A DNA stretch of 32,000 bases. It comes from Flavobacteriaceae bacterium (GTDB lineage Bacteria > Bacteroidota > Bacteroidia > Flavobacteriales > Flavobacteriaceae). The first letter of the stretch is position 1; each line of letters starts with the position of its first letter. The stretch lies in NCBI GenBank assembly GCA_965224465.1, contig OZ245049.1, positions 1,710,001-1,742,000 on the forward strand, read 5' to 3'. Below the pieces are notes generated by a model. That model was not told the origin of the DNA. It saw nothing but the letters and a program-made list of their open reading frames with translations, and made no database searches. The position numbers and the translations under genes are program-made. Of the stretch, positions 5,276-31,144 are shown piece after piece.

Positions 5276-5298
5276 ACATTGATAACACAAAAACAAGC

Positions 5299-9259: not shown

Positions 9260-9412
9260 TTCAATTACAATCCATAATAACCTATATAAATAAGTTGTTT
9301 TACGCTCTAGTGTTGTTAAAAATCAGAACGATAGTTAAGGCTATCCATCCATTTTTTATCTAGCTAAAAAAAAATTATTTATAAACCGTCACTTGGAAAT
9401 ATATTTGGTTTA
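9259..9412 (+). repeat. MITE-like dispersed repeat, copy B
   Basis: Starts AATTCAATTACAATCCATAATAACCTATATAAATAAG and ends CCGTCACTTGGAAATATATTTGGTTTA. It begins at the HAD stop codon. Confidence 0.75.
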
Positions 9413-9436
9413 ATTTAATCACAGCATCTCAAACAA

Positions 9437-9484: not shown

Positions 9485-10473
9485 TAGGGTTACCCTCTTA
9501 AGTCGCAATATATTTGATTGATTTATAGGTTATTGGTTTTTCTTTACACATTCTTTTTAGTAGGTTTTCTAAGATGTTTTCTCTAAAATTGAGTCGATTA
9601 AATCGATAGAAATACTCTTGAATGTATTGATTTATATACTCTTTCTCACAATACGAATGAACGCCTCTTAACCAATTTTTAAAGTTTCTTATCTGAAAAT
9701 GTAGCATCTTAAAATTCTCACCATTATTAGATAATATTTGTGTTAAATTTGGGAAGTTCTTTTTTAAAGGTTTATATCCTGACCAGCCATCTGTAACTAT
9801 ATTGGCATCAAACTTTATATGTTTCTCAAATATTGGTTTTAATGATTTGCAACTATAATCTTCTATCACCTTTGCGTATGCTCTGCCTGGTTTACCATTT
9901 CTATTTTCAATGGCAATTACAACTCTAATTTTAGTAGCTGATTTACTACGTCCTTGCTCTCCTTTTTTTGGTGTACCTATTTCAAACTCGTCTACATGAA
10001 CTTCTTTTTCTAAAGGATATTTCTCACTACTTTTCATTGCTTCTTGTACTTTTCTTCTAAACAACCAAGCTGTCATCTGTTTAACACCGTGCCTTTCTGC
10101 TAACCAAATACTATTCGCTCCTTTCTTACTGGTAACTATATCATAAGTCGTTTCAAAGGCTTCTACAATACCAAATTTAACTTTATGAAATAGAGTGTTC
10201 GCAGTTGGAGACTCATCATATCCGCATTTTGTACAACGTCTATTATACGCTCTTTTTCCTTTTAAAAACTTTGTGTTTTTACATTTAAAACAGGAAAAAC
10301 CTTCTTCCCATTTTACAGATGATAAAAAAGATAAACATAAACTCTCTTCTCCAAACTTAGTGTGAAATTCTTTACGAGATAATTCTTTTAATATTTTCAT
10401 AGCTTTCTTTTTCTAAAAGTAAAAAATCCTTTCAGAAAAACAAAATATTAGTGAGATTTAAATAGGTAACCCT
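9485..10473 (-). mobile_element. IS1595-family insertion sequence flanked by a 9-bp direct repeat
   Basis: Imperfect terminal inverted repeats (T)AGGGTTACC..TTAA..TC at 9485-9510 and 10448-10473. Direct repeat ATTATTTAA at 9476-9484 and 10474-10482. The element contains a single transposase ORF. Confidence 0.8.
9498..10400 (-). CDS. IS1595-family transposase (N-terminal zinc ribbon plus DDE domain)
   Basis: The N-terminus has CxxC...CxxC (CFKCKNTKF...RRCTKCGY) and SIWLAERHGVKQMTAWLFRRKV. The central/C-terminal part is ISXO2-like (VHVDEFEIG, IVTDGWSGY). These are typical of IS1595 transposases. Confidence 0.85.
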   Translation of the reverse strand: MKILKELSRKEFHTKFGEESLCLSFLSSVKWEEGFSCFKCKNTKFLKGKRAYNRRCTKCGYDESPTANTLFHKVKFGIVEAFETTYDIVTSKKGANSIWLAERHGVKQMTAWLFRRKVQEAMKSSEKYPLEKEVHVDEFEIGTPKKGEQGRSKSATKIRVVIAIENRNGKPGRAYAKVIEDYSCKSLKPIFEKHIKFDANIVTDGWSGYKPLKKNFPNLTQILSNNGENFKMLHFQIRNFKNWLRGVHSYCEKEYINQYIQEYFYRFNRLNFRENILENLLKRMCKEKPITYKSIKYIAT

Positions 10474-15917: not shown

Positions 15918-16433
15918 TACATATATTTTTTAGATGATACAAAAGTCTCATAAACAGACATCATTCAGAGAAACAGCACATGCATAATGTACTGCAAACA
16001 TCTTAAATAATTAAACAAAAATCATGCCGAATAACTTATATTGAAACTCACCCGATTTTATTCTATTCTTTACAACTTACTCCTTATCAAATAAGTAGTC
16101 AATTACCTCACCAGCAAAGACACGAAGCATGTTCCCAAAAGAATATGTTCTATTATAAAAGGAATCCCCTCAATAAGGATTTAACATATTTCCTCGAAAA
16201 CGATTATGCCATTGTTTAAAAAACACGGCAAACTCAGCACAAAACTGATCTTTTACGAAAAAAACAAATTCAGTAGTAGTAATACCAATTTACAATGAAA
16301 TGAGACTAACTGCGCTATTTATTTAAAAAAACAAACCTGCTTACACCAATGTAACTCACAGTAGTTCAGCACAAAAAACAAAGATACTCTTTTTTAAACG
16401 ATAGCAAAACAAACTTTATTACTCCAAGGATAA

Positions 16434-16600
16434 ACACCAACTAAAACCCAAAATAACCGATATAAATAATCTGTTTTACGTTCTAACGTTGTTAAAAAAT
16501 AGAACGATAGCTAACCAAGGCGCTACCCTTAGATTATTTGCCTAGCTAAAACAAAAAATAATTCCATTTCTAATCCATCACTTGGAAAATTACTTGGTAT
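16434..16600 (+). repeat. MITE-like dispersed repeat, copy C (variant internal loop)
   Basis: Starts ACACCAACTAAAACCCAAAATAACCGATATAAATAAT and ends CCATCACTTGGAAAATTACTTGGTAT. The TAGCTAA..GCCTAGCTA internal stem is kept, but the loop sequence differs from other copies. Confidence 0.75.
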
Positions 16601-16725: not shown

Positions 16726-19700
16726 ATGACTCAACAAACACCTTATACTCCAAGTAATAAAATACGAATTGTAACTGCTGCTTCACTTTTTGATGGCCAT
16801 GATGCCGCCATTAATGTAATGCGACGCATCATCCAATCTACAGGCGTGGAAGTTATACACCTAGGCCACGACAGAAGCGTAGAAGAAGTTGTAAATACAG
16901 CCATCCAAGAAGATGCAAATGCTATTGCCATTACCTCCTACCAAGGAGGACATAACGAATATTTTAAATACATGGTTGACCTACTTAAAGAAAAAGGGGC
17001 TTCAAATATTAAAATATTTGGCGGAGGTGGAGGTGTAATTTTACCATCAGAAATCGCCGATTTAATGGATTATGGAATTACAAAAATATACACTCCAGAT
17101 GACGGAAGAAAATTGGGACTCCAAGGGATGATAAACGATATGATTTCCCAATGTGATTACCCTACAGGAGAAAACATAACAACAACTATTGATGCGTTTC
17201 AGCTACAAAACATACAAACAATTGCCAATGCCATTTCTGCAGCAGAAAATTTCCCAGAAAAGCATGCCGACTTTATAAAAACCATACGCAAAAAGGCATC
17301 CAAATCCAACATCCCTGTATTGGGAATTACGGGAACTGGAGGAGCTGGAAAATCGAGTTTAGTAGATGAACTTGTACGTAGGTTTTTACAAGATTTCCCT
17401 AGTAAAAAACTAGCCATAGTATCGGTAGACCCTTCTAAACGCAAAACAGGAGGCGCATTACTCGGAGACAGAATCCGTATGAACGCCATCAAAACAGACC
17501 GTGTCTACATGCGTTCTTTAGCTACTAGACAATCTAACTTAGCCTTATCAAAACACGTGAGCGATGCCATTGACATCTTGAAAATCTCTGCTTTTGACTT
17601 GGTTATTCTAGAGACCTCCGGTATTGGTCAAAGTGACACTGAAATACTAGATCATTCGGATGTATCTTTATATGTTATGACGCCCGAGTACGGTGCAGCT
17701 ACCCAGTTGGAAAAAATTGACATGATTGACTTTGCGGATGTAATCGCCTTGAATAAATTTGACAAAAGAGGCGCTCTTGACGCACTTCGAGACGTTAGAA
17801 AACAATACCAACGCACTCATAATTTATGGAAAGAAGACATTGACAGCATGCCTGTCTACGGCACAATCGCATCACAGTTTAACGATCCTGGTGCAAACAA
17901 CCTATACCGTGTTTTGATTCAAAAACTAAACGAAAAAACCAATGTAAATTTCGAAAGCTCGTTTGAAATCACCAAATGCATGAGCGAGAAACAGTATATC
18001 ATCCCTCCAAATAGAACACGTTATCTATCAGAAATATCAGAAAACAATCGCACATACAATCAAGAAAGCACAACTCAAAAAGAAATTGCTCAAAAACTAT
18101 TCGGTATTTTTAAAACCATCTGCTCTGTTGCAAATATCAACAAAAATCCCCATCAATTTTTATCAAAAAACGGACTGAAAGAGACTGAGATAATTTCGGC
18201 ATTAGAAACCAAAGAAAACACCGAATTCTTAGGGCTTTTATTTAAAGAATTTGCACGTGTAAAAATGGATCTAAACCCACACAACTGGAACATAATTACC
18301 CAATGGGACACAAAAAAACAACGCTACAAAAACGATGTCTTTCTATTTAAGGTACGTGATAAAGAAATTAAAATAGCGACACATAGCGAATCACTTTCTC
18401 ATACAAAAATACCCAAAATTTGTCTGCCATCCTACGAAGCTTGGGGAGACATCCTATTCTGGTCATTACAAGAAAATGTTCCTGGAGAGTTCCCTTTTGC
18501 TGCTGGAATTTACCCATTCAAAAGAACGGGTGAAGACCCAACAAGAATGTTTGCAGGTGAAGGCGGCCCGGAACGCACCAATAGACGGTTTCATTATGTA
18601 AGTTTAGGCATGCCAGCAAAAAGGCTCTCTACCGCTTTTGACAGCGTAACTCTTTATGGAAACGACCCAAACAAAAGACCCGATGTTTACGGGAAAATAG
18701 GAAATGCAGGTGTATCCATCTGCTGCTTAGACGATGCTAAAAAACTATACGCTGGTTTTGATTTAACAGCCCCAATGACCTCTGTTTCCATGACTATTAA
18801 CGGCCCCGCCCCAATGATGCTAGGTTTTTTTATGAATGCAGCCATAGATCAAGAGTGTGAGAAATACATTAAAAAAAATCATTTAGAAAAAGAAATAAAC
18901 AAGAAGATAGATAAAATCTACTCTACTAAAAATACTGAACGGACTCAATACCAAGGAGAACTTCCAGAAGGAAATAACGGATTGGGATTGTTTTTATTAG
19001 GAGTTACAGGTGATGAGGTATTGCCTTTAGATATTTACACAAAAATCAAATACGAGACCATTTCCAAAGTAAGAGGAACCGTACAGGCGGACATATTAAA
19101 AGAAGACCAAGCACAAAACACCTGTATCTTTTCTACAGAGTTTGCTTTGAGACTTATGGGAGATGTTCAAGAATATTTTATCGATAATAATATCCGTAAT
19201 TTTTATTCTGTTTCTATTTCAGGATATCACATTGCCGAAGCAGGCGCCAATCCTATTACCCAATTAGCTTTTACTTTAGCTAACGGATTTACGTATGTGG
19301 AATACTACCTATCTCGTGGCATGGACATTAATAAGTTTGGACCAAATCTATCCTTTTTCTTCTCCAACGGAATCGATCCAGAATATGCAGTAATAGGACG
19401 TGTAGCTAGAAGAATTTGGTCAAAAGCAATGAAACAGAAATACGGCGCTAATTCTAGGGCTCAAATGATGAAATACCATATACAAACCTCTGGACGCTCT
19501 TTACACGCTCAAGAAATTGACTTTAACGACATCCGAACCTCTCTTCAAGCCTTGTATGCAATCTATGACAATTGCAATAGTTTACATACAAATGCCTACG
19601 ATGAGGCCATTACAACACCTACCGAAGAAAGTGTCCGAAGAGCCATGGCGATCCAACTAATTATAAATAAAGAATTAGGGCTCACCAAGAATGAGAATCC

Positions 19701-20172
19701 TATCCAAGGAGCATTTATTATTGAAGAATTGACCGATTTATTTGAAGAAGCTGTCTATACAGAATTTGACAGAATCACGGAAAGAGGAGGTGTTTTAGGA
19801 GCCATGGAAACCATGTATCAACGCAGCAAGATACAAGAAGAGAGTTTGTATTATGAAACTTTAAAACACACAGGTAAGTTTCCTGTTATTGGAGTAAACA
19901 CCTTCTTAAGTAAAGACGGATCTCCTACCGTCCTTCCAGAAGAAGTAATACGCGCAACAGAAGAAGAAAAAAAACAGCAAATTCTCACGGTCACAAACCT
20001 ACACCATAATACGGATAAAAAAACAGCAGAACAGCTAGAATTACTTCAAATAAAATCGATCAACAATGAAAATATTTTCGAACAATTAATGGAAGCGACT
20101 AAAATATGTTCCCTTGGTCAAATTACAGAAGCACTCTTTAAAGTAGGAGGACAATACAGAAGAAATATGTAG
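16726..20172 (+). CDS. icmF: fused B12-dependent acyl-CoA mutase (IcmF-type: B12-binding domain + MeaB-like G-protein + mutase barrel)
   Basis: The N-terminal B12 domain has the DxHxxG motif ([11 protein letters not shown]). The P-loop is [17 protein letters not shown], with a NKFD box. The large C-terminal part is a methylmalonyl/isobutyryl-CoA mutase substrate domain ([43 protein letters not shown]). Confidence 0.88.
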
Positions 20173-20180
20173 ATAGGTCT

Positions 20181-20226
20181 ATAAACCAATTACATTCCAA
20201 AACAACCGATATAAATAGTTGATTTC
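20181..20226 (+). repeat. MITE-like repeat, copy D, truncated after ~45 bp
   Basis: ATAAACCAATTACATTCCAAAACAACCGATATAAATAGTTGATTTCA matches the left end of copies E/F/H. It then switches abruptly to effector-gene sequence. Confidence 0.7.
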
Positions 20227-20385
20227 ATGAAGGATTCAAAAGGAGAAAATCACCCTGATTCAGGAGCAATAGATTTAATGAAATACTATAATAACGACCC
20301 AAAATATATTGATTATAAAAGGGCTAGTTCTTCGGAAAAAGACATTCCAGGTTTACTTTGGCTCACTAAATTAGAATTAAAATGA
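20227..20385 (+). pseudogene. orphan 3' fragment (last 52 codons) of an HExxH-effector paralogue
   Basis: MKDSKGENHPDSGAIDLMKYYNNDPKYIDYKRASSSEKDIPGLLWLTKLELK* aligns to the last ~55 aa of the 429-aa protein at 21929-23218. It lacks the HExxH region. Confidence 0.75.
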
Positions 20386-20755
20386 AGTATATTGTATTAT
20401 TAATTTTTATTTCTTTTTTTAGTTGTGAAAATAAAATAAAAACTAAAATAAAAGGCATTATCTATATCAATAAAGACCTTCCTGTTTTAAACATAGAAAT
20501 TGGCTCAAAAATTATATTTTCACCTATGCATTCTAAGTATGCTAAAAGGGTAGGTTTGGTTTTAAAAAAAACGGAGAATTTGAATTCGAAATAAAAAGAA
20601 CAGAGATGAAAGGAGACAATAATTTCGCTGTCATTTTTAGAAAAAAAGGATATAAAGATGAATACAGATTTGTAGACATTAGGAAGGGTGGAGAAATTAA
20701 TTTAGATACAATCTTTTTAAAACAAACCGACAGTATAACGTTGCCTAATAACTAA
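20382..20755 (+). pseudogene. small lipoprotein (putative immunity, family 1), frameshifted at an A8 tract
   Basis: Lipobox FFSC, with an ATGA overlap to the upstream fragment. Frame 0 stops at 20594. Frame 2 continues NGEFEFEIKRTEMKGDNNFAVIFRKKGYKDEYRFVDIRKGGEINLDTIFLKQTDSITLPNN* to 20755. The paralogue at 25704 has A9 at this position and stays in frame there. Confidence 0.7.
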
Positions 20756-20841
20756 GATTCGTGTGGTGCGTAGCGCTCAGAACGAACATAATGTTGACTA
20801 TACCGACTCAAAAGATAATACTATGGGGATTTCCCGAAGTT

Positions 20842-20997
20842 ATACCAAAATAAAATAACTGATACAAATAGTTTATTTCACGTTCTAGCGTTGTTAAAAA
20901 ACAGAACCATAGCTAAGGCTATCCATCCATTTTTCGCCTAGCTAAAACAAAAAATAACTCCATTTCTAAACCATCACTTGGAAATGTAGTTGGTATA
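20842..20997 (+). repeat. MITE-like dispersed repeat, copy E
   Basis: Starts ATACCAAAATAAAATAACTGATACAAATAG (left TIR partly deleted) and ends CCATCACTTGGAAATGTAGTTGGTATA. Confidence 0.75.
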
Positions 20998-21259
20998 ATT
21001 AAAAAATAGTTTCGTATGTAATAAATTTTTCTGCGAAAATTTCAGAGTTTTTTTGCCATAAAACTCATTCTAGGTAGCCCCTTAAGCACATCTATTAAGT
21101 ACTCATAACCGTTGTGTCATAAGCGCACTGTACCCATAGCAATTATTGTTTATTTTGTTATACTAATAAAGAAGCCATATTATAAGGCAGGAAAACAGGA
21201 ATCTCCCCTTTAAAACAAGCATGTAAACAAAATTAATCAGAATAAAAACACAATAACAC

Positions 21260-21289
21260 ATACGCGTATAACATTGTTTTATATATTTG
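21260..21289 (+). promoter_or_regulatory. candidate promoter/operator: 10-bp perfect palindrome ATACGCGTAT followed by a TAnnTTTG-type -7 box (TATATTTG)
   Basis: Palindrome at 21260-21269 and TATATTTG at 21282-21289, about 175 nt upstream of the Hcp-like ATG. The whole segment is duplicated at 25194-25223. No clear -33 TTTG element was seen. Confidence 0.35.
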
Positions 21290-21462
21290 ACCTACGCTTA
21301 AAAACAAACACGCCCTAACAACAAGCCTTCCCTACATTGTAAACTAAATGGATACACTATCAAGTTTAGAATTGTTATTGTGAGGATATGTGTATTACAA
21401 AGCATTGACACACTCCAAGAACTTAATACAACATATAACAACACAACATATAACAACACAAC

Positions 21463-21927
21463 ATGGTAAAAGCAATATTAATAATAGAAGGAAAAGAAGT
21501 AAACGTACGTTGGTTTACCATCAATTTTAATCAAGGAGCAAATCCTAACGGCAGACCCTCACAGAAACCCATATTTGTAGGTTTAAAACTAATTATAGAA
21601 ACTAGAAAAGACCTAAATCTTACTGACTGGGCCTTTTCCTCTAGACAAACAAAACAGATAGTATTACATCTTAATTCCGTTATTGTGGGAGGCAAAACAA
21701 GAAAAATATTTTTCTATGACTGTCATCTTGTAAACTGGAAAACAAATTTTTCTTCTACAGGATCAGATCCAATGACGGAAACTTTAGAAATCACCTGTGC
21801 TGGTGTTGAAGATTCTAACTCGTTTGGTGTGTATTCTGCCTCTTGGAGAGAAACATTTCCTAATCTAGAAGAAAATAAAAACAATAACCAAATAATTGAA
21901 CTAAAAGTAAAAACTAATATATCATAA
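21463..21927 (+). CDS. Hcp/TssD-like tube protein (Bacteroidetes T6SS-iii type)
   Basis: 154 aa. MVKAILIIEGKEVNVRWFTINFNQGANPNGRPSQKP..GLKLIIETRKD...IFFYDCHLVNWKTNFSSTGSDPMTETLEITCAG follows the pattern I recall for Bacteroidetes TssD: K-A-x-L-x-I-x-G, x-F-x-Q-x-x-D/N-x-x-G-R/K-P, and a late PM..L.I.A motif. Confidence 0.62.
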   Translation: MVKAILIIEGKEVNVRWFTINFNQGANPNGRPSQKPIFVGLKLIIETRKDLNLTDWAFSSRQTKQIVLHLNSVIVGGKTRKIFFYDCHLVNWKTNFSSTGSDPMTETLEITCAGVEDSNSFGVYSASWRETFPNLEENKNNNQIIELKVKTNIS

Positions 21928-21928
21928 A

Positions 21929-23218
21929 ATGCCATATTTTATCCCTTTAGGAGTACCTGACTTTAACGGAAAAAAAGAAAGAGACTTTTTCCAGTTTACA
22001 TACGAAATAGAAGATAATGACGCTCTAGAATTACTTATAGAAATACGTGACGGCAGCAATGTTATATATAAAGAAAAAATAACAGATTGCTCAAAATTAA
22101 TCCAAGGAGAACATATTTGGCAATGGGACGGTTTTGATAATCATGGAATTTTAGACACTGCAAAATTCACTAATGCAAAAAGTTTAAATTTTTACGTCAC
22201 AGGAAAAGATGATGCTGGAAACTACGACCGATCTAAAACTGATTTTAAAGCAGAATATGACCAAGTAGATTGGGTAGATGTTAAAATTGATAAAGTCTCT
22301 AAACGTATTGACGTAACATTACGTGTAAATTTAACTGATGGAGGTGAAAAAGGAACTGAAACCAATTATAAATTCGAGAAAATAAGCCCAGGTGATTATC
22401 ACAATCCAAAACTATCGGCACCGAAAAAAATATATCCTTGGAGTAAAATCCCTAACAAAGCATTAGAATACTACGGAGAAACTCCTATAAAAACAAGAAC
22501 TAAAAGTTTTGAAGAATTAAAAGAAATGGTTCTAGATGGTATAAATATTTACTGGAGTCGACATCAAGGTAATATTGGTAAAAATATACAGATCAATAAT
22601 AAAAAATACGAAATTTTCGTGAATGCTATTAATATAACGGATTCTAATAAAAGTTTGGATGACATTCCTCTTATTTACAACACAAATAGTCCTTGGTCTA
22701 GATCTGGAAACACTGGAGGTAGCTACAGTGACGGGAATTTTGATGACGAAATAATGGGAATACTTCCTAATGGTTTAGTTCAACGAATTTCTTTCAATTC
22801 AGGCTATATTTATCATGATAATTGGAAATCATGGTACAAAGGACACTACATACATAAAACAAAAGGTTGGTTATTTAATTCGGAGGTTAATGAAACTAAA
22901 GACTTTGAAGAAACATCTGCTCACGAAATTGGACATGAAATACTTCAAGCTTACGCAGGAACAGTCTATTCGTGGCAACATAAAGGTAGTTCTTATTATT
23001 TACCTCAAGATATTAAACCTGTAGGAGAAGAAACTTTTAAAGAGGAATATATAAACATTGATTATATGGAAAACTCAAAGGGTGAAAACGTACCTACCAG
23101 TGGAGAAATTGACTTAATGAAATACTATAACGATTATTCTGATTACAAAAATAGAATTATAGCTAACGAAAAAGACGTACTCAGTTTATTATGGTTAACT
23201 AAACTAAATCTAAAATGA
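21929..23218 (+). CDS. putative secreted effector with a C-terminal HExxH zincin-like domain
   Basis: 429 aa with no signal peptide, starting 1 nt after the Hcp-like stop. The N-terminal segment has an FlgD-Ig-like signature (LIEIRDGSNVIYKEKI...GEHIWQWDGFDNHG). The C-terminal part has TSAHEIGHEILQAYAGTVYSWQHKGSS. HExxH plus a conserved His 14 residues later is also kept in the paralogue fragments at 26905 and 27670. Confidence 0.6.
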   Translation: MPYFIPLGVPDFNGKKERDFFQFTYEIEDNDALELLIEIRDGSNVIYKEKITDCSKLIQGEHIWQWDGFDNHGILDTAKFTNAKSLNFYVTGKDDAGNYDRSKTDFKAEYDQVDWVDVKIDKVSKRIDVTLRVNLTDGGEKGTETNYKFEKISPGDYHNPKLSAPKKIYPWSKIPNKALEYYGETPIKTRTKSFEELKEMVLDGINIYWSRHQGNIGKNIQINNKKYEIFVNAINITDSNKSLDDIPLIYNTNSPWSRSGNTGGSYSDGNFDDEIMGILPNGLVQRISFNSGYIYHDNWKSWYKGHYIHKTKGWLFNSEVNETKDFEETSAHEIGHEILQAYAGTVYSWQHKGSSYYLPQDIKPVGEETFKEEYINIDYMENSKGENVPTSGEIDLMKYYNDYSDYKNRIIANEKDVLSLLWLTKLNLK

Positions 23219-23670
23219 TATATATACTAATATTCACTTTTATCTTTTTTTCTATTTTACTAATAACTAACCCTTTGTTTAGAAAAAAAAGAATAATTTC
23301 AAAAATAATTATTTATATCATTTTCACTCTAGTAATCTTCTTAATTACCGTTTTATTTATAATGTATTTATGGAACACAAATATTGATTATCGCGAACAA
23401 AAGAAAATGATGAATTCTCATAATATTTATATTTTAAACACCCTAAATAACCCAATAAAAAACACAATAACAATACTTGAAAACAAAAACAACAAAGATA
23501 CAATTATATCAAATACTAATGGTTTTGTAAACTACAACAAAGTAAAAAACAAGACAATTATAATCCAAGCTAAAGGACATTTAACAAAGACAATAGCTGT
23601 CAATAAAATTAATAATGACACAATACGTCTAAAACAAATACAGACAAATAACCACCTACACAATAAGTAG
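23215..23670 (+). CDS. small two-TM membrane protein, putative cognate immunity protein
   Basis: ATGA overlap with the effector stop. Two hydrophobic helices (IYILIFTFIFFSILLITNPLF; IIIYIIFTLVIFLITVLFIMYLW) are followed by a ~90-aa beta-rich domain (NPIKNTITILENKNNKDTIISNTNGFVNYNKV...IIIQAKGHLTKTIAV). That domain resembles the CarboxypepD_reg-like pattern of the downstream lipoproteins. Confidence 0.5.
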   Translation: MIYILIFTFIFFSILLITNPLFRKKRIISKIIIYIIFTLVIFLITVLFIMYLWNTNIDYREQKKMMNSHNIYILNTLNNPIKNTITILENKNNKDTIISNTNGFVNYNKVKNKTIIIQAKGHLTKTIAVNKINNDTIRLKQIQTNNHLHNK

Positions 23671-23882: not shown

Positions 23883-25008
23883 GCTTAAATTCAACTAATA
23901 AACGCAACTTTTCGATTTGATTCTATGATGGTTATATTTTCAAAACAGAAAAGTAGGAAAACCTACCTTTCTTGTCTTGATGGATATGTATCTTACGGTC
24001 TCAAATCTCGAAAAAAGAAGTTGTATGAAACACATCACCCAAGCGCAAAGATACACAATTTGTTGCATGTTAAAACAAGGTTATAAACAGGTTGAGATAG
24101 CAGCTGCTATAGGAAAAGACAAGTCTGTTATTAGCAAAGAGATTAAGCGTAATTCAGACAAAAGAAATGGAGTTTACAAGCATGAATTAGCCCAAAAAAA
24201 GTATGCTAAACGTCATAAAGAAAAGCCTAAAAGAAAACGCTTTACAGAAGATATTCAACAAGCAATAGAGTTGTTATTGCGAGACGATTATAGTCCTGAG
24301 CAAGTAGTTGGTGTCCTAAAAAAACAAGGTAAAGAAACGGTGTCTATTGAGCGTATATATCAGCATATTAGGGAAGACAAGAGGAATGATGGTGATTTAC
24401 ATACACACCTTCGCAGACAGGGAAGGAGATATAGAAAACGTGGCTCATCAAAGGATTCTAGAGGGGTTATAAAGAATCGTATTAGTATAGAACAACGCCC
24501 TGAAGTTGTTGAACAAAGAAATCGATTTGGAGATTTAGAGGTCGATTTAATCATAGGTAAAAACCATAATCAAGCCATACTTACCGTAAATGATAGAGCT
24601 TCTGGAATGCTTAAAATGAAAAAAGTAAGCTCTAAAGAAGCAGTTGTTGTCACTAAAGCTATCAATGAAATATTAGAAGACTGGAAGCCTTATCTACATA
24701 CTATAACAGCTGATAATGGAAAAGAATTTGCAGGCCATGAGCAGGTTGCAGAAAATTTATGTATTGATTACTTTTTTGCGCATCCATATCACTCTTGGGA
24801 AAGAGGATCTAACGAAAATTTAAATGGTTTGATTAGACAATATTTTGCCAAAGGAAGTGACTTTACAAACCTAACAGATCAAAGAATCAAAGAGGTAGAA
24901 ACAAAATTAAATAACAGACCTAGGAAGAGACATAAATATCAAAACCCTATATTTGTAATGGAACAATTATTATTTAACTAAAAGTTGCGTTTGTGACTTG
25001 AATTCAGC
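23883..25008 (+). mobile_element. IS30-family insertion sequence
   Basis: Imperfect ~29-bp terminal inverted repeats: GCTTAAATTCAACTAATAAACGCAACTTT (23883-23911) and the reverse complement of AAAGTTGCGTTTGTGACTTGAATTCAGC (24981-25008). A single transposase ORF lies inside. Confidence 0.8.
24025..24981 (+). CDS. IS30-family transposase
   Basis: N-terminal HTH (MKHITQAQRYTICCMLKQGYKQVEIAAAIGKDKSVISKEIKRN). DDE region (GDLEVDLIIG, ITADNGKEF, HSWERGSNENLNGLIRQY). The start is taken at the ATG at 24025 rather than the TTG at 23977. Confidence 0.88.
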   Translation: MKHITQAQRYTICCMLKQGYKQVEIAAAIGKDKSVISKEIKRNSDKRNGVYKHELAQKKYAKRHKEKPKRKRFTEDIQQAIELLLRDDYSPEQVVGVLKKQGKETVSIERIYQHIREDKRNDGDLHTHLRRQGRRYRKRGSSKDSRGVIKNRISIEQRPEVVEQRNRFGDLEVDLIIGKNHNQAILTVNDRASGMLKMKKVSSKEAVVVTKAINEILEDWKPYLHTITADNGKEFAGHEQVAENLCIDYFFAHPYHSWERGSNENLNGLIRQYFAKGSDFTNLTDQRIKEVETKLNNRPRKRHKYQNPIFVMEQLLFN

Positions 25009-25193
25009 AAGTGTTTAATTCTGCATTTTATTTTTAAAAAGCACTCCAAGTATTAAGTTCTCTGTTTTTATTAGTAGAAACCACAAACCCACGTTTACCA
25101 ATTAATATCATGTTTTAAAAACAGTACGATGAAGTTCAAAACTTTACAATAACTTAAAGAACAAAACTACATCGAAATTAAAACACAGAAACA

Positions 25194-25223
25194 CATACGC
25201 GTATAACATTTTTTCATATATTT
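25194..25223 (+). promoter_or_regulatory. second copy of the palindrome plus -7-box leader, now without a downstream Hcp gene
   Basis: ATACGCGTAT at 25194-25203 and TATATTTG at 25216-25223. About 140 bp (25185-25332) aligns with 21250-21395 upstream of the Hcp-like gene, then runs straight into repeat copy F. Confidence 0.3.
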
Positions 25224-25332
25224 GAACTGCATTTTAAAAAATAAACACGCCCTAATCATAAGCTAAACCAACTGTGAACTAAATAAATATGCTATCAAGT
25301 TTAGAATTGCTATTGTGAGAACATTGGGCATT

Positions 25333-25497
25333 ACACCAATTACAATCCAAAATAACCTATATAAATAGTTTATTTCACGTTATAGCATTGTTAAAAAAAA
25401 ATAAAATGACAGCTAAGGCTATCTATCCATTTTTCGCCTAGCTAAAACAACAAACAACTCCATTTCTAAACCGTTACTTGGAAATGTAGTTGGTATT
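25333..25497 (+). repeat. MITE-like dispersed repeat, copy F
   Basis: Starts ACACCAATTACAATCCAAAATAACCTATATAAATAG and ends CCGTTACTTGGAAATGTAGTTGGTAT. The left flank is the Hcp leader copy. The right flank is effector codons equivalent to ~aa 352 of the intact gene. Confidence 0.8.
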
Positions 25498-25707
25498 AAA
25501 CCTGAGAGGAAAGAATCATTTAAAGAAGAATATATTAATAGAGATTTTATGAAAGATACCTCAGGTGAGAACTCCCCTGATTCAGGAGCAATAGATTTAA
25601 TGAAATACTATAATAACGACCCAAAATATATTGATTATAAAAGGGCTAGTTCTTCGGAAAAAGACATTCTAGGTTTACTTTGGCTCACTAAATTAGATTT
25701 AAAATGA
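25497..25707 (+). pseudogene. orphan 3' fragment (~69 codons) of an HExxH-effector paralogue
   Basis: (I)KPERKESFKEEYINRDFMKDTSGENSPDSGAIDLMKYYNNDPKYIDYKRASSSEKDILGLLWLTKLDLK* aligns with DIKPVGEETFKEEYINIDYMENSKGENVPTSGEIDLMKYY...LLWLTKLNLK of the intact gene. There is no HExxH and no credible start codon. Confidence 0.75.
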
Positions 25708-26079
25708 AGTATATTGTATTATTAATTTTTATTTCTTTTTTTAGTTGTGAAAATAAAACAGAAACTAAAATAAAAGGCATTATCTATATCAATAAAGACC
25801 TTCCTGTTTTAAACATAGAAATTGGTTCAAAAATTATATTTTCACCTATGCATTCTAAGTATGCTAAAAGGGTAGATTTAGTTTTAAAAAAAAACGGAGA
25901 ATTTGAATTCGAAATAAAAAGAACAGAGATGAAAGGAGATAATAATTTTGCTGTCATTTTTAGAAAAAAAAGGATATAAAGATGAATACAGATTTATAGA
26001 CATTAGGAAGGGTGGAGAAATTAATTTAGATACAATCTTTTTAAAACAAACCGACAGTATAACGTTGCCTAATAACTAA
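25704..26079 (+). pseudogene. small lipoprotein (putative immunity, family 1), frameshifted at an A8 tract
   Basis: Near-identical to 20382-20755. It is in frame through the first A-tract (A9) but has A8 where the other copy has A7 (25964-25971). This gives a stop at 25979, and the remainder (KGYKDEYRFIDIRKGGEINLDTIFLKQTDSITLPNN*) reads in frame 1 to 26079. Confidence 0.7.
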
Positions 26080-26165
26080 GATTCGTGCGGTGCGTAGCGC
26101 TCAGAACGAACATAATGTTGACTATACCGACTCAAAAGATAATACTATGGGGATTTCCCGAAGTT

Positions 26166-26328
26166 ATACCAAAAAAAAAAACCGAAATAACTGATATAAA
26201 TAGTTTGTTTTAGGTTCTAGCGTAGTTGTAAAAAACAGAACAATAGCTAGGCTATCCATCCATTTTCCGCCTAGCTAAAACAAAAAATAATTTCATTTCT
26301 AAACCTTCACTTGGAAATGTAGTTGTAT
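26166..26328 (+). repeat. MITE-like dispersed repeat, copy G
   Basis: Starts ATACCAAAAAAAAAAACCGAAATAACTGATATAAATAG and ends CCTTCACTTGGAAATGTAGTTGTAT. It has a perfect internal stem TAGCTAGGC...GCCTAGCTA. Confidence 0.75.
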
Positions 26329-26372: not shown

Positions 26373-26834
26373 ATGAAATACATATTAATCTTAATTATAC
26401 CATTCTTATTATTAGCATCTTGCGCTCACAACATTCCTATAGCAAATTTAAAATTTAATGAGATTAAAAAAAACAATGAAATCAACAATTATTATTCCTT
26501 AAACTTTTCATCAGATATAGAGCTTATTCATAATTTATCAGAAAAGCATACAATGGCAAGGTTTGATTGTTTTTTTAAAAACGGGAATATTGAACAAAAG
26601 GATTTCACAAACTATAACGGTTATGTATTAGTATCCGTTGGAGAATTAAAAAAAGCTTCAAATATTTCTTCAGCACAACTTTATAATTACACGGTGAATG
26701 TTACCTTTGATAAAAATAAAGGTGAATTTTTAGACGAGAAGGATATTCCTGAAATTATTAAATTACTCAATAAAAAACCAAAATATTTAAACTGTGCAAT
26801 CACAGCAGTAACATATTTACAAACTACAAAATGA
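26373..26834 (+). CDS. hypothetical lipoprotein (possible orphan immunity protein of a different family)
   Basis: Signal peptide and lipobox MKYILILIIPFLLLASC. I recognise no motif. It is embedded among the effector/immunity cassettes. Confidence 0.5.
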   Translation: MKYILILIIPFLLLASCAHNIPIANLKFNEIKKNNEINNYYSLNFSSDIELIHNLSEKHTMARFDCFFKNGNIEQKDFTNYNGYVLVSVGELKKASNISSAQLYNYTVNVTFDKNKGEFLDEKDIPEIIKLLNKKPKYLNCAITAVTYLQTTK

Positions 26835-26904: not shown

Positions 26905-27297
26905 CTAATTATTAGCGAAACACATAGCATCAAGCCTACACACCCTATTTCCGATGCCAACTCAAAAGAAGCTGATTTTGCAATTATGTACAGAACAAAA
27001 ATCATATATAACACCAATTACAATCCAAATCCTGAGGATAAAGAACTTAAATACACATCAGCTCACGAAATAGAGCATACAATATTAAAAGCTTACGGGG
27101 GAACATTTTATAGTTATGGACATAAAGGAAGTGTAAACACTTTTACCCAGACTGAAAGCTCAGACGCAGAAGAATACTCTAAAAAGGGAGAAATAGATAG
27201 TATGCCATATTACACAAATGTTGTTCCTTTAAGTCAGTACGAAAGGCTCTGTTCTGCGGAAAAAGATGCTATAAGTTTAATCTGGTTAACTAAATGA
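26905..27297 (+). pseudogene. orphan 5'-truncated HExxH-effector paralogue (divergent variant)
   Basis: The frame is open from 26905: ...ISDANSKEADFAIMYRTKIIYNTNYNPNPEDKELKYTSAHEIEHTILKAYGGTFYSYGHKGS...GEIDSMPYY...EKDAISLIWLTK*. It aligns with mid-region INITDSNKSLDDIPLIYNTN and the HExxH region of the intact gene. About 75 residues between these two regions are missing. Confidence 0.65.
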
Positions 27298-27665
27298 GAA
27301 TTAAAATGAGAAAATTCCTGTTTTTTATAGCTGTAGTTTATCTGATTCAGTGTAAATCAAATATAAATTACTACCAAGGCTTTATTTATGATATGAATAA
27401 TAATCCCGTAATAAATTTAAAAGTTTACGAAAAACACAATAAAGAAAATTATTCATTGACAAATAAAAAAGGATATTTTAAAATATATACAAAAAGGAAT
27501 AACATTAAACGATTTCTTTATGTTAAACTAAATGAGTCAAGAATTATTGATTCTATACAAATTACTGGAATTCAAGGAGGAGAACGAATTAAATATAGTT
27601 TTATCGAAGGAAGAAAAGATACATTATTTATAACATTGCCTAAACAACTAAATATTGCGCGCTAG
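27294..27665 (+). CDS. small lipoprotein, putative immunity protein (CarboxypepD_reg-like pattern)
   Basis: ATGA overlap with the upstream fragment. Lipobox LIQC (the start may be the second ATG at 27306). YQGFIYDMNNNPVINLKVYEK...TNKKGYFKIY resembles carboxypeptidase-regulatory-like beta-sandwich domains. Confidence 0.55.
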   Translation: MRIKMRKFLFFIAVVYLIQCKSNINYYQGFIYDMNNNPVINLKVYEKHNKENYSLTNKKGYFKIYTKRNNIKRFLYVKLNESRIIDSIQITGIQGGERIKYSFIEGRKDTLFITLPKQLNIAR

Positions 27666-27669
27666 GTAG

Positions 27670-28053
27670 TACTCAAGCCCCCTTGGAGATGGTAATGAAT
27701 GGTTCTATGATAAAATAGTTGATGCAAATGAAGAATATAAAGAAACCTCAGCTCATGAGATAGGTCATGAAATACTGCAAGCTTATGCGGGTAATGTGTT
27801 TTCTTGGCAACATAAAGGCAGCTCTTATTATATGCCTCAAGATAAAAAGCCAATAGGCAAAGAATCATTTAAAGAAGAATCTATTAATAGAGATTATATG
27901 GAAGAAACTAAAGGGGGAAATTACCCTCATAGTGGTGAAGAAATAGATTTAATGAAATACTTTCCCGAAACAAAACCCAATAATTTTTATGATAAACGTG
28001 TTGCAAATAAAAAAGATGTACTTGGGTTATTATGGCTTACAAAATTAAAATGA
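27670..28053 (+). pseudogene. orphan 5'-truncated HExxH-effector paralogue (close to the intact copy)
   Basis: The frame is open from 27670, directly after the preceding stop: GDGNEWFYDKIVDANEEYKETSAHEIGHEILQAYAGNVFSWQHKGSSYYMPQDKKPIGKESFKEESINRDYMEE...IDLMKYF...KKDVLGLLWLTKLK*. There is no ATG upstream of the HExxH. Confidence 0.7.
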
Positions 28054-28393
28054 AACTTATAATAATTTTTGCAGTATCATTTCTTACTTCATGTGTTGAA
28101 GACACCTTAAGAGATGAAGTAAAGGCTTGTGTTTACTATAAAAACGTCCCCGTTAAAGATGCTATAATATTAACATGGCAAGGCTATGAAAAAGGTTTTA
28201 CCAAGGAAACCTCTACAGACTCCTTAGGTTATTTTTATTTAAAAAAATCAGTAGATACAATTTAGGGTCAGAATCACGTACTATTTCTCAGAAATTTTTA
28301 ATTAAAAAAGAAGATTTAATATCCGATACTTTGTCAACACTTGATTATAGATGTATCGATAAAAAAAATGACACAATATATTTAAGAAAATAA
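28050..28393 (+). pseudogene. small lipoprotein (putative immunity), frameshifted at an A7 tract
   Basis: ATGA overlap; MKLIIIFAVSFLTSC lipobox. Frame 0 stops at 28265. With one extra A at 28241-28247 it would read GYFYLKKISRYNLGSESRTISQKFLIKKEDLISDTLSTLDYRCIDKKNDTIYLRK* to 28393, which parallels the C-terminal halves of the 27294 and 28457 proteins. Confidence 0.6.
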
Positions 28394-28456
28394 CGTCCCT
28401 AGCAATTGTAACCATTGCACAAAAGAATAAATTTGCCACACAAAATTAGAATTAAA

Positions 28457-28807
28457 ATGAAACACATAGCATCTATTTACTTACTCATTTGTTTTTTCTC
28501 TTGTAAAGAAAAAGAGCTTAATTATTATCATGGAGTTATTGTTGACAAAAATTTAATTCCTATTTTAGGTGTTACTGTTAAAACAGATTATGCTGATTCT
28601 GTATATACAAAAACAACAAAAAACGGTTATTTCAAATTACCAAGAAAAGCCAATAGATATGGAAGTTTAGTTTTAAAAAAAAAAGGATATAAAACGGATA
28701 CCGTAAGGACTATATGGACTCAAAGCGGTGAATTTATAGACTATAGTTTTATTAATAATAAAATAGACACCGTATTATTAATAAAAACAACGGCATACAA
28801 TAACTAA
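28457..28807 (+). CDS. small lipoprotein, putative orphan immunity protein (CarboxypepD_reg-like pattern)
   Basis: MKHIASIYLLICFFSC lipobox. YHGVIVDKNLIPILGVTVKTDYADSVYTKTTKNGYFKLPRKANRYGSLVLKKKGYKTDTV is a classic CarboxypepD_reg-like signature. It is preceded by a ~25-bp degenerate remnant of the effector 3' end (TTGCCACACAAAATTAGAATTAAAATGA vs TGGCTCACTAAATTAGAATTAAAATGA). Confidence 0.6.
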   Translation: MKHIASIYLLICFFSCKEKELNYYHGVIVDKNLIPILGVTVKTDYADSVYTKTTKNGYFKLPRKANRYGSLVLKKKGYKTDTVRTIWTQSGEFIDYSFINNKIDTVLLIKTTAYNN

Positions 28808-28826
28808 CAGCAACATACATAATACA

Positions 28827-28982
28827 ATACCAATACTAAACAACCGATATAAATAGTTGATTTCACGTTATAGCGTTGTTAAAAAACAGAACCATAGCTA
28901 AGGCTATCCATCCATTTTTCACCTAGCTAAAACAACAAACAACTCCATTTCTAAACCGTTACTTGGAAATGCAGTTGGTATA
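28827..28982 (+). repeat. MITE-like dispersed repeat, copy H
   Basis: Starts ATACCAATACTAAACAACCGATATAAATAG and ends CCGTTACTTGGAAATGCAGTTGGTATA. It marks the right edge of the island. Confidence 0.75.
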
Positions 28983-28990
28983 AGATGCGC

Positions 28991-29047: not shown

Positions 29048-31144
29048 TTATTTTTTTGCCAATATAGCCAAGGACATCCTTATAGTAGTATAGCCAATTT
29101 TATCTTCAAAAAACTCATAATAAGGTTTTAACAAATCAGGATTCCCGAGTTTTTCCTTAGCAATTCTTACTTTTTCCACCTCTTCCTTTGTTACAAAATC
29201 GTACAAATCAACAGCTTTTCCGTCCGCAAATAATTTAGCAATATGAGAATACACGGTCACAGGATTTAATCCACGCTGATCCGAAATCTCATCCACAGAC
29301 AAACCTTTTTTATACAAGCGAAAAGTTTCATCAAAAGTGTTCTTCTTTTTTGGTTTCTGCCGTATAAATTTAGTAATTTCAGCTATAAATTCATCACCAT
29401 AAACTTCCAATTTACGCTGCCCTACTCCACTTATATCTAAAAAATCTGCATCACACATAGGTCTTGCACGATCCATTTCTTTTAAGGTAGCATCACTAAA
29501 CACTAAATAGGCAGGAATCCCCTCATCGGTCGCAATTTTAAAACGCAGTTTTTTCAAAACATCAAACAATGTAGACGATTTACCTGTAACTTTAGGTAGT
29601 TTCTTTACTGTTCTTTTTGCGATTTTCTTTAAATCTACAGGTTTAGTCAAACTAACTTTTTGCCCATTATAAAGTACTTTTTTAGAAAACGCTGTCAATT
29701 GCAAGGCGTTGTGTTTATGAAATGCTATTTCACACAAACCCAAATTAGTCAATTGAATAAGATACTGTTGCCAATCTTTCCAAGAGATTTCGTTTCCTAT
29801 GCCGTAGGATTTTAGCTGATCATACCCTTTGTCCAAAACAGTGGCATTTTTAGCCCCACGAAGTACATCTACAATAGTTCCCACTGCTTCCTTCTCCTTT
29901 ACCCTATATATCACAGACAATGCTTTTTGAGCAATTACAGTACCGTCAAAAATCTGCGGAGGATTTTTACATACGTCGCAGTTTCCACAATTTCCAGACA
30001 ACTCACCAAAATAACTTAACAGTAAAATTCGACGACATGTGGTGGCTTCAGAAAACTGCTTCATTCTTTCAAGTTTCGCTACTTGCACATCCGCATTGCT
30101 AGCCCCTTCCGTAAATTTTCTCAATTGAATCACATCTGCATAACTATGAAAAAGCAAGGCGTGAGATTTTAAGCCATCGCGCCCCGCTCTCCCAATTTCT
30201 TGATAATACCCTTCGATATTTTTAGGCATATTATAATGAATCACCCAACGCACATTCGATTTATCTATTCCCATTCCAAAGGCAACTGTTGCACACACAA
30301 TCTGAATTTCATCAAAAATAAAATCCTCCTGCACCTGCGTTCTATCATCAAAAGACATTCCTGCATGATACGCCGCTGCATTGATTCCGTTTTTATCTAA
30401 TTTAGCTGCCAATTGCTCGGTAGACTTACGGCTCAAACAATAAATAATCCCAGAATCTCCAGGTCTTTTATTCACAAATCGAACTATTTGACCAATTCTA
30501 TCATCAGCAGTTCTCACTTCGATTTCAATGTTTTTACGATCAAATGATGAAATAAAAATAGGCGCATTTGGAATACTTAATTGATCCAAAATATCTTTCC
30601 GAGTCGCTTTATCGGCGGTAGCAGTCAGCGCTATGATAGGAATCTTAGGCATGCTGCGTTTAAAAAAACCCAACTGTTGATATGAAGGTCTAAAATCGTG
30701 TCCCCAAGAAGAAATACAATGGGCTTCGTCGATAGCAATGCAGCTGATAAATTCTTCTTTTAAAATATTTTGCAAGAGCGATAAACTCTCAGGAGCTACA
30801 TACAATAGTTTTAAATCGTGCTTTAAAATTCGTTCAAAAATATCGGATTGATCCTCGTGATCCTGACTACTGTTATAATACGCAGCAGGAATCCCATTGG
30901 CATTTAGACCATCTACCTGATCCTTCATCAAGGCTATTAACGGAGAAATCACTAACGTAAGTCCTTTAAAAATCATGGCAGGCAACTGAAAACAAATAGA
31001 TTTTCCGCCCCCCGTAGGCATGATAACCAAAGCGTCTTCCCCTTTTAAAACAGATTCGATAATCACTTTTTGTTGGTCACGAAAAGTATCATACCCAAAA
31101 TATTTTTTTAATGTTTCTTCTAAAACTCCCTCGGTGTACTGCAT
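29048..31144 (-). CDS. recQ: ATP-dependent DNA helicase RecQ
   Basis: 698 aa. Motifs: FGYDTFRDQQ, MPTGGGKS, DEAHCISSWGHDFRPSY, TATA, AFGMGIDK and GRAGRDG. It also has a zinc-binding Cys cluster (CGNCDVC) and a C-terminal HRDC-like region. Confidence 0.95.
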   Translation of the reverse strand: MQYTEGVLEETLKKYFGYDTFRDQQKVIIESVLKGEDALVIMPTGGGKSICFQLPAMIFKGLTLVISPLIALMKDQVDGLNANGIPAAYYNSSQDHEDQSDIFERILKHDLKLLYVAPESLSLLQNILKEEFISCIAIDEAHCISSWGHDFRPSYQQLGFFKRSMPKIPIIALTATADKATRKDILDQLSIPNAPIFISSFDRKNIEIEVRTADDRIGQIVRFVNKRPGDSGIIYCLSRKSTEQLAAKLDKNGINAAAYHAGMSFDDRTQVQEDFIFDEIQIVCATVAFGMGIDKSNVRWVIHYNMPKNIEGYYQEIGRAGRDGLKSHALLFHSYADVIQLRKFTEGASNADVQVAKLERMKQFSEATTCRRILLLSYFGELSGNCGNCDVCKNPPQIFDGTVIAQKALSVIYRVKEKEAVGTIVDVLRGAKNATVLDKGYDQLKSYGIGNEISWKDWQQYLIQLTNLGLCEIAFHKHNALQLTAFSKKVLYNGQKVSLTKPVDLKKIAKRTVKKLPKVTGKSSTLFDVLKKLRFKIATDEGIPAYLVFSDATLKEMDRARPMCDADFLDISGVGQRKLEVYGDEFIAEITKFIRQKPKKKNTFDETFRLYKKGLSVDEISDQRGLNPVTVYSHIAKLFADGKAVDLYDFVTKEEVEKVRIAKEKLGNPDLLKPYYEFFEDKIGYTTIRMSLAILAKK

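Follow-up and report, generated by a model that had tools for sequence, protein, structure and literature searches.

A candidate T6SSiii effector-immunity module with a separate, tailed TssD in a Flavobacteriaceae genome

We analyzed a 32,000-nt stretch of a Flavobacteriaceae bacterium genome (assembly GCA_965224465.1, contig OZ245049.1, positions 1,710,001-1,742,000; hereafter the window, with all coordinates counted within it), and in particular three coupled genes on its + strand: a tssD/hcp gene (21463-21927, 154 aa), a putative effector gene (21929-23218, 429 aa) and a candidate immunity gene, referred to here as the partner (23215-23670, 151 aa). The junction between tssD and the effector gene reads TAA-A-ATG, leaving a 1-nt gap, and the effector and partner genes overlap by 4 nt in an ATGA. 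A first-pass annotation of the sequence had singled out these three open reading frames (ORFs) as a candidate cargo module of a type VI secretion system (T6SS), and their coordinates, strand, gap and overlap were confirmed. The window is AT-rich (GC ~26-41%), and the module is placed among housekeeping genes, between an IcmF-type fused mutase (16726-20172) and recQ (29048-31144, minus strand); no T6SS core genes were found among the proteins of the 32 kb. We consider it likely that the three genes form an auxiliary effector module of the Bacteroidota T6SS of subtype iii (T6SSiii), in which a zinc-hydrolase toxin would be loaded on an Hcp tail and countered by a periplasmic antidote.

The 154-aa protein is a Bacteroidota TssD. 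It matched Pfam PF17642 (E 7.2e-25; 87.8 bits, the curated cut-off being 25.8), with residues 2-116 aligned to positions 3-117 of the 128 in the profile, and its sequence also matched solved structures of Bacteroidota Hcp proteins (6bdc, Flavobacterium johnsoniae Hcp1, E 1e-4; 7yw0; 9qwl), which bears out the TssD/Hcp pattern noticed in the first-pass annotation. The protein consists of the Hcp domain (residues 2-116) and a C-terminal tail of ~35 residues that ends in IIELKVKTNIS. A paralogue on the contig taken as source (P0123, 229 aa) is 94% identical over 136 aa and has a different tail; from the two sequences, this looks like one Hcp body with cargo-specific tails.

The 429-aa protein matched no Pfam or NCBIfam family, and PDB sequence searches (phmmer and profile, E <=10) gave no usable relative. 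The only near-match, the CapP toxin at E 0.5, was rejected as a relative, the match spanning the HExxH helix alone. A homology search identified 579 homologues of the effector, all of them unnamed or "hypothetical", and those with an organism name all come from Bacteroidota (Flavobacteriia, Chitinophagia and Cytophagia). A scan of 185,579 species genomes gave 142 relatives, from which 80 loci were kept, all in Bacteroidota, the best species-representative locus being 63% identical. Hosts include Tenacibaculum, Flavobacterium columnare, F. covae, Chryseobacterium (rich in members of the family), Elizabethkingia, Pedobacter and Sphingobacterium. In a full HMMER pass over 1.84 billion cluster representatives (E <=1e-3; clusters at 50% identity), the catalytic part was found in 302 of them, and it is C-terminal in nearly all of the 150 representatives listed. 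A literature search found no paper describing the effector family. The system is of a well-known kind, but the candidate effector-immunity family is new, widespread and without annotation.

One locus differs from all others: Sphingobacterium sp. Mn56C (L067, 5402-13008) has a head-to-tail row of four full-length toxin paralogues (591-608 aa) without any intervening partner gene, three of the four being spaced by gaps of 2-4 nt.

Two parts can be told apart in the window effector. Residues 1-111 (21929-22261) comprise an FVPLGI segment and an immunoglobulin-like (Ig-like; FlgD-Ig-like) beta-sandwich with a WDGFD signature, and residues 112-429 (22262-23218) a beta-hairpin module and then a putative zincin-like catalytic domain. 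In an alignment of 83 family sequences, the invariant residues are H332, E333, G335, H336, S348, H351, M397 and Y399 in the catalytic part and the WDGFD signature in the N-terminal domain, where W66, G68, F69 and D76 never vary. The HEIGH motif (residues 332-336) lies at 22922-22936; the third His (H351) follows the second by 15 residues, at 22979-22981; and M397 and Y399 of the Met-x-Tyr occupy 23117-23125. Conservation drops at residues ~361-390 (23009-23098), a variable region that probably holds the specificity of the toxin. All motifs quoted in the first-pass annotation were found (GEHIWQWDGFDNHG, residues 60-73; HEIGHE, 332-337; WQHKGSS, 349-355; GEIDLMKYY, 392-400), and they are not chance matches, since H332, E333, G335, H336, H351, M397 and Y399 are invariant across the alignment. 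The FlgD-Ig-like N-terminus that it had also described holds for the family, in which 35 of the 83 members matched FlgD_ig (PF13860, best E 1.1e-6); the window protein itself gave no match at E <=0.1.

AlphaFold2 modelled both the whole effector (predicted local distance difference test, pLDDT, 91.0; predicted template modelling score, pTM, 0.88) and residues 112-429 (pLDDT 90.4, pTM 0.88) with high confidence. The N-terminal domain (pLDDT 88-97) shows the strands of an Ig-like sandwich at residues 21-110, which is followed by a long beta-hairpin module and then by an alpha/beta domain; HExxH sits on a 25-residue helix of this domain, ahead of an irregular half and a C-terminal helix. With Foldseek, the whole model matched generic Ig-like domains only (E >=4e-3), and residues 112-429 had no match better than E 0.35 in PDB and BFVD. 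The best weak matches of the catalytic part were ADAM10, TACE and stromelysin (MMP3) in PDB (E 0.35-3), and in BFVD a fragilysin-like poxvirus protease and MP-nase, which were not significant. As to the zincin fold that the first-pass annotation had raised as a question, the best matches are all metzincins, and none is significant (E 0.35-9, probability <=0.13). Its statement that the catalytic domain belongs to no named family agrees with the Pfam, NCBIfam, PDB sequence and Foldseek searches, and no Pfam peptidase was above threshold in the effector family. As in the metzincins (astacins, serralysins, ADAMs, MMPs, fragilysin), the predicted order of elements is helix, mixed sheet, long HExxH helix, irregular lower half, Met-x-Tyr and C-terminal helix; unlike in them, HExxHxxGxxH/D is absent, and HEIGHEILQAYAGTVYSWQH has no Gly at +3 from the second His and has its third His at +15. 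Judged from the model, the catalytic domain is zincin-like with a metzincin-like topology, and falls outside every described family.

Genomic context in relatives was counted on the 80 species-representative loci, and the copies of the effector were classified by their N-terminal form. Homologues occur fused to TssD (P0021, P0033, P0094, P0097) and to the PAAR-like DUF4280 (P0050-52 and others); a VgrG homologue was found within 10 kb in 37 of the 80 loci and a TssD-domain ORF in 46. Twenty-three copies have no N-terminal extension, and TssD is directly upstream in 14 of these, the rest being mostly truncated copies or copies at contig ends. Six copies are covalent TssD fusions. A further 24 have an N-terminal tag (~70-120 aa) beginning MSRxRIVxG, with VgrG directly upstream in 21. 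Other extensions are found in 30 copies, preceded by VgrG (4), TssD (1), another ORF (7) or nothing within 60 nt (18), and ~9 such extensions are Cys-rich and PAAR-like (all loci examined, reference loci included). By these comparisons, a single toxin core is attached to all three known T6SS carriers. The homologue of F. johnsoniae (P0066), which has a 186-aa partner, is located inside a T6SSiii cluster, between vgrG and tssF, its neighbours in the cluster being TssO, TssC, TssE, two TssD, VgrG, a DUF3289 effector and TssF. Tenacibaculum sp. Ill and T. maritimum repeat the arrangement of the window, with a TssD of 156-168 aa, a 1-nt gap, the effector and an overlapping partner. The order of Hcp, effector and immunity gene on which the first-pass annotation had built its proposal recurs beyond the window: the family is linked to TssD, VgrG and PAAR, and has a conserved, coupled partner gene downstream.

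Two observations concern the surroundings of these loci. A tag of ~50-70 residues (MSRxRIVxGxxTKxxGGxHN...) is common to the toxin family and to the unrelated, adjoining DUF3289 effector (for example in F. johnsoniae L002, 7757-9403 and 10001-11653, and in many Chryseobacterium loci); from its distribution it looks like a modular VgrG-loading tag, for which Pfam has no family. In one strain of T. maritimum (L004, 6585-8822), genes for an HNH protein, a CD-NTase and a TIR-STING protein, of the type found in cyclic oligonucleotide-based antiphage signalling systems (CBASS), lie directly upstream of the tssD-toxin module, and this site is a variable island, since the L005 and L006 strains carry different genes there.

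The junction between tssD and the effector gene bears on how the toxin could be delivered. In every fused or extended form, a strand of the pattern (D/E)F-x-(I/V)-x-(F/I)-x-L sits 4-6 residues ahead of the conserved FVPLGI. In the split form its counterpart closes the TssD tail, and the stop codon and ATG are placed at the very boundary of the strand and FVPLGI (IIELKVKTNIS followed by MPYFIPLGV in the window, TNFSVTPKLS followed by MPSFVPLGI in Tenacibaculum); the TAA-N-ATG junction is conserved in the window and in L001, L004, L005 and L006. Because the tail strand and the toxin form one polypeptide in relatives, the pair in the window can be read as the split version of an Hcp-toxin fusion, and in the simplest mechanism the toxin would be bound by the Hcp tail, perhaps through a donated strand. 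A programmed frameshift joining tssD to the toxin was also considered and rejected: inspection by eye showed no slippery site, and both the stop and the ATG are kept from one genus to another, for which reasons translational coupling is the simpler explanation. In the module as we picture it, tssD would encode a specialised Hcp, with a body matching the cell's own tube and a cargo-specific C-terminal tail; the antibacterial toxin, of ~49 kDa, would be tethered to this tail more probably than held in the lumen, and firing of the T6SS would deliver the Hcp-toxin complex into a neighbouring Gram-negative cell.

The toxin could instead travel in the Hcp lumen or be loaded via VgrG or PAAR, with the neighbouring tssD only providing a spare, co-regulated subunit of the tube. 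Hcp-dependent effectors are classically carried in the lumen, and the toxin core uses VgrG- or PAAR-linked routes in other genomes. We nevertheless regard this alternative as unlikely: a protein of 429 aa with a rigid two-part fold (pTM 0.88) is well over the usual size of lumen cargo, so that carriage of such a rigid 49-kDa protein in the lumen is unlikely in itself, six homologues are covalent TssD fusions, and the tail strand lies within the toxin polypeptide in all extended forms. As to VgrG or PAAR, the stand-alone form has no tag for either, and it follows a tailed TssD at a distance of 1 nt in 14 of the 23 tag-less copies.

The 151-aa partner has two N-terminal transmembrane (TM) helices, and the loop between them carries five positive charges (RKKRIISK); by the positive-inside rule, its C-terminal domain of ~95 residues would face the periplasm. 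The protein and the partner that follows the effector in Tenacibaculum sp. Ill share 35% identity (E 8e-26). Among 91 partner genes found after homologues, 62 encode lipoproteins and nine encode two-TM proteins, with 20 unclear cases, and most overlap the toxin gene by ATGA. The first-pass annotation had likened the outer part of the partner to the lipoproteins encoded nearby. In favour of this, hhalign aligned the C-domain of the two-TM type with the lipoprotein partner family (96.8%, E 2.7e-10), whereas direct pairwise BLAST of the two-TM partner against the window lipoproteins gave no support (E >=5e-4 in a tiny database). A hidden Markov model (HMM) of the lipoprotein family detected five genes in the window, at 28457-28807 (E 4e-31), 27294-27665 (4e-25), 25704 (4e-13), 28032 (2e-11) and 20382 (1e-9). 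The window lipoproteins matched CarboxypepD_reg (PF13620/PF13715) at E 9e-5 to 2e-3, below the gathering score, and a lipoprotein of this family in F. johnsoniae, three genes downstream of the effector, has an unmarked PF13715 match. The two-TM partner type is also found as an orphan in the L007, L008 and L027 arrays, and the final 17 codons of a toxin belonging to the window's subtype remain ahead of the L007 copy.

From the invariant residues, the model and the topology of the partner, we propose that the C-terminal domain of the toxin is a zinc-dependent hydrolase, in which H332, H336 and H351 would be the metal ligands and E333 the general base, with the Met-x-Tyr beneath the metal site, and that it would attack a periplasmic or envelope substrate, either a protein or a peptidoglycan peptide. 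The 151-aa protein would protect the producer, its two TM helices residing in the inner membrane and its periplasmic transthyretin-like (CarboxypepD_reg-like) domain binding the toxin.

With the same delivery, the toxin might hydrolyse peptidoglycan, at its stem peptides or cross-links, instead of cleaving envelope proteins, a possibility that we hold to be rather doubtful. The immunity proteins are predicted to face the periplasm, as this alternative would have it, and many periplasm-acting T6SS toxins target the cell wall. On the other hand, the metal-dependent cell-wall peptidases of families M15 and M23 use motifs other than HExxH, and the Pfam, PDB profile and Foldseek searches showed no similarity to any cell-wall hydrolase. 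From Chryseobacterium (sp. OV279), a genus rich in our effector family, a 2026 preprint describes T6EC11, a peptidoglycan-degrading T6SS toxin with a new fold that acts only in the periplasm (bioRxiv 10.64898/2026.09.28.754971). The preprint mentions HExxH for another toxin, T6EC12, only, and a relation of our family to T6EC11, which is presented there without a sequence, is conceivable.

The toxin of the module would be fired by a T6SS encoded elsewhere in the genome. A search with the TssF of Polaribacter retrieved P0261 (73% identity, PF05947) on a 5.24-Mb contig, the one recorded for all window proteins looked up, and taken here as source. An identical TssF is also found on a 43-kb ENA contig (L088), together with TssC, a TssB-sized ORF, ClpV, TssO, TssN, TssE, two TssD, VgrG and PAAR. 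The ClpV, TssN and TssE of the 5.24-Mb contig are identical to those of L088, and its VgrG, TssD and four PAAR are at least 90% identical; L088 also has the dispersed 160-nt repeat of the window (described below) and its GC content. Whereas the first-pass annotation had named a genome devoid of a T6SS as a ground for abandoning its proposal, the contig taken as source encodes TssF, ClpV, TssN, TssE, VgrG, TssD and PAAR. Genome papers report T6SS genes in T. larymnensis and T. ovolyticum as well.

The module is flanked by fragments of its own kind. The paralogous fragments to which the first-pass annotation alluded are real: there are four of them in the window, all on the + strand, and each is followed by a lipoprotein gene. 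The first cassette (20227-20750) consists of a 52-aa toxin C-terminal fragment (20227-20385) and a lipoprotein gene (from 20382) frameshifted at poly-A runs; it has 95-97% DNA identity to 25543-26179, and the full-length homologue of its lipoprotein is the 131-aa partner in L011. The second (25549-26079) comprises a 52-aa toxin tip (25549-25707) and a lipoprotein gene with one poly-A frameshift (25704-26079), the homology of the tip beginning at ~25498, ahead of the ATG; the tip subtype (YYNNDP..DY) and partner type of this cassette are those of the active pair in Tenacibaculum L007 and L008. The third (26986-27665), of a subtype that matches orphan cassettes of T. maritimum, has a 103-aa toxin fragment with a degenerate HEIEH (26986-27297) and an intact 123-aa lipoprotein (27294-27665) in ATGA overlap. 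The fourth, with an extra immunity gene (27796-28807), has an 85-aa tip (27796-28053) with 75% DNA identity to 22886-23107 of the active gene, a truncated lipoprotein (28032-28265) and an intact one (28415/28457-28807).

The toxin fragments of the window begin inside or just ahead of the variable stretch of residues 361-390, and the same orphan tip/immunity layout is found in T. maritimum. Moreover, the roles are reciprocal, the active partner type of the window being an orphan in L007/L008, and the orphan type of the window being active there. By their arrangement, the flanking fragments appear as a classical orphan array of toxin tips and immunity genes, as in polymorphic toxins. Among effectors with N-terminal parts more than 60% identical, the partners have an identity of 0.42 if the toxin tails are similar and of 0.24 if they are not. 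The flanking tips and lipoprotein genes may represent displaced or spare cassettes, which would give immunity to the toxins of relatives and provide material for recombinational swapping of tips.

Several features accompany the array. The lipoprotein copies of the first two cassettes (20382-20750 and 25704-26079), 95-97% identical, differ in having two and one poly-A frameshifts; these could reflect decay, homopolymer sequencing error or phase variation. A 153-aa lipoprotein encoded within the array (26373-26834) lies outside the CarboxypepD_reg-like immunity family and has no family match, and it may be immunity to an unrelated toxin. An intergenic repeat of ~160 nt, with copies 77-91% identical and all on the + strand, is dispersed across the 32 kb in seven full copies (5112-5279, 9257-9413, 16433-16600, 20842-20998, 25337-25496, 26185-26325, 28811-28990) and one partial copy (20181-20227), and is also found in L088 (12384-12661, 13244-13281). 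We considered these repeats as sites of cassette recombination and rejected the idea, since they also occur between housekeeping genes and in the contig of the T6SS cluster, and are thus genome-wide. The repeat had no Rfam match, and its predicted hairpins lack covariation support.

The arrays also bear on whether the HExxH protein is a toxin at all. Other roles of the putative toxin would be those of a secreted factor with an accessory or processing function, or of an effector directed against eukaryotes, with the small downstream proteins being chaperones or unrelated. It speaks for such a role that some HExxH domains in polymorphic toxin proteins are processing peptidases, and that the hosts include pathogens of fish or humans (T. 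maritimum, F. columnare, Elizabethkingia). Against it, the HExxH domain is terminal, with nothing downstream to release, and the partner gene is translationally coupled and diversifies together with the toxin tip in close relatives, though not across all pairs; the partner also accumulates in toxin-less arrays of orphan copies, the signature of antibacterial immunity genes, and the family is common in free-living soil and marine genera. We find a role of this kind very unlikely.

Upstream of the antibacterial module that we propose there is a leader (21229-21462), a probable promoter region without any + strand ORF of at least 50 aa (none across 20595-21462). It contains a Bacteroidota-type -7 box (TATATTTG, 21282-21289), in an 83-nt stretch repeated at 25164-25246, and if this box is used, the 5' untranslated region would be roughly 170 nt long. 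Since TAnnTTTG is expected by chance about once per kb, we only infer its promoter function. The leader stretch has a second copy at 25163-25335, with 79% identity, in which the -7 box is kept. An IS30-family transposase gene (23977-24981, + strand; NCBIfam NF033563, E 1e-86) separates the intact module from the orphan array; this element shapes the island and has no part in the mechanism. The leader copy (25164-25324, 79% identical) follows the IS30 gene and now reads into an orphan toxin tip, an arrangement that suggests a second tssD-toxin operon that has lost its 5' part. A second transposase gene of the window, IS1595/ISXO2-like, is located at 9498-10400 (minus strand), and adjoins one copy of the dispersed repeat.

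The module itself might be a decaying, disused remnant like the fragments around it, in an island that holds an IS30 element, frameshifted lipoprotein genes and truncated toxin tips. We find this highly improbable, as its three ORFs are intact and tightly coupled, every invariant residue is present, the leader with its -7 box is kept, and T6SS core genes are found on the contig taken as source.

The reading of these genes as a tail-loaded toxin with its antidote draws on the gene order, the TssD family, the conservation, the linkage to T6SS parts, the homology of the partner and the T6SS genes on the contig taken as source; it would entail toxicity, metal dependence, a periplasmic site of action, tethering to the tail and swapping of tips. 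Several results weigh against it. No significant sequence or structure match links the catalytic domain to any peptidase, for which reason "hydrolase" rests on motif and topology, and the third His, placed 15 residues beyond the second, is at odds with the metzincin motif. The partner of the window did not match the lipoprotein HMM at E <=10, its link to that family running through orthologues and profile comparison. Across all pairs, partner and toxin tail correlate weakly (Spearman 0.20), and no more closely than partner and N-terminal part do (0.21). Finally, the assignment of the T6SS genes to the source contig is indirect, and the TssC of L088 (552-1895) has no counterpart among the clusters recorded for the 5.24-Mb contig, being alone in its 90% cluster; in the source genome, the gene for the sheath may be different, disrupted or wrongly called.

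A bolder version of the same reading joins two claims: that the catalytic domain is the first of a new structural family of zinc hydrolases and has a new target in the periplasm, and that donation of a beta-strand by the Hcp tail holds the split tssD/toxin pair together. We put this combination forward tentatively, as possible rather than probable. If true, it would constitute an undescribed way to load large cargo onto Hcp, evolutionarily interchangeable with covalent Hcp, PAAR and VgrG-adjacent forms.

Among known systems, the closest in working is Tpe/Tpi (VgrG2b C-terminal domain/PA0261 of Pseudomonas aeruginosa), comprising periplasm-acting T6SS HExxH toxins with immunity proteins that have their bulk in the periplasm and, according to the species, are soluble, lipoproteins or TM-anchored (PMC6899460). 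The module shares with Tpe/Tpi, including Tpe1/Tpi1 of Acinetobacter baylyi, the HExxH motif and a periplasm-facing, variously anchored immunity protein, a likeness that is no proof of membership. It differs in the phylum of its hosts, in the T6SS subtype (iii), in its delivery by Hcp and not only by VgrG fusion, and in the CarboxypepD_reg-like fold predicted for its immunity proteins. No VgrG2b chain appeared in the PDB sequence searches (E <=10), nor among the 50 best Foldseek matches, and no other PDB chain matched in sequence at E <=0.3.

The family also resembles Hcp-ET, or "evolved" Hcp, in that six homologues are TssD-toxin fusions, and that near-identical Hcp bodies with different tails occur in one genome. 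Unlike Hcp-ET, the window has one gene for the Hcp and another for the toxin, as do at least 14 of the 80 loci, with the conserved TAA-N-ATG junction. To our knowledge, none of the toxin domains described for Hcp-ET is related to that of the module.

With polymorphic toxins (Rhs, CdiA-CT, and the orphan immunity arrays of Vibrio cholerae and Bacteroidales), it has in common a conserved body, a variable C-terminal stretch and an adjacent immunity gene, as well as truncated tips and immunity genes downstream and, in relatives, pure immunity arrays. Unlike in Rhs-type systems, the catalytic centre is conserved, and only a loop of ~30 residues and the tail vary; for this reason, the polymorphism appears to concern immunity recognition and not toxic activity. 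In this respect, it resembles the specificity of colicin DNases and their Im proteins more than the exchange of Rhs tips.

The effectors of T6SSiii are poorly charted outside gut Bacteroidales. The family described here is carried by pathogens of fish (T. maritimum, F. columnare, F. covae), by the opportunists Elizabethkingia and Chryseobacterium and by genera from soil and sea, and is unannotated in all of them; naming it, with a catalytic site open to testing and a defined immunity family, would provide a new antibacterial toxin activity to characterise, and a marker for T6SSiii effector islands located far from the core cluster. Its split, Hcp-fused, PAAR-fused and VgrG-adjacent forms constitute a natural series on how the T6SS attaches large cargo, and a genetically tractable member is available within the T6SS cluster of F. 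johnsoniae. The immunity lipoproteins and orphan arrays, in turn, could mark strain-level competition in aquaculture pathogens.

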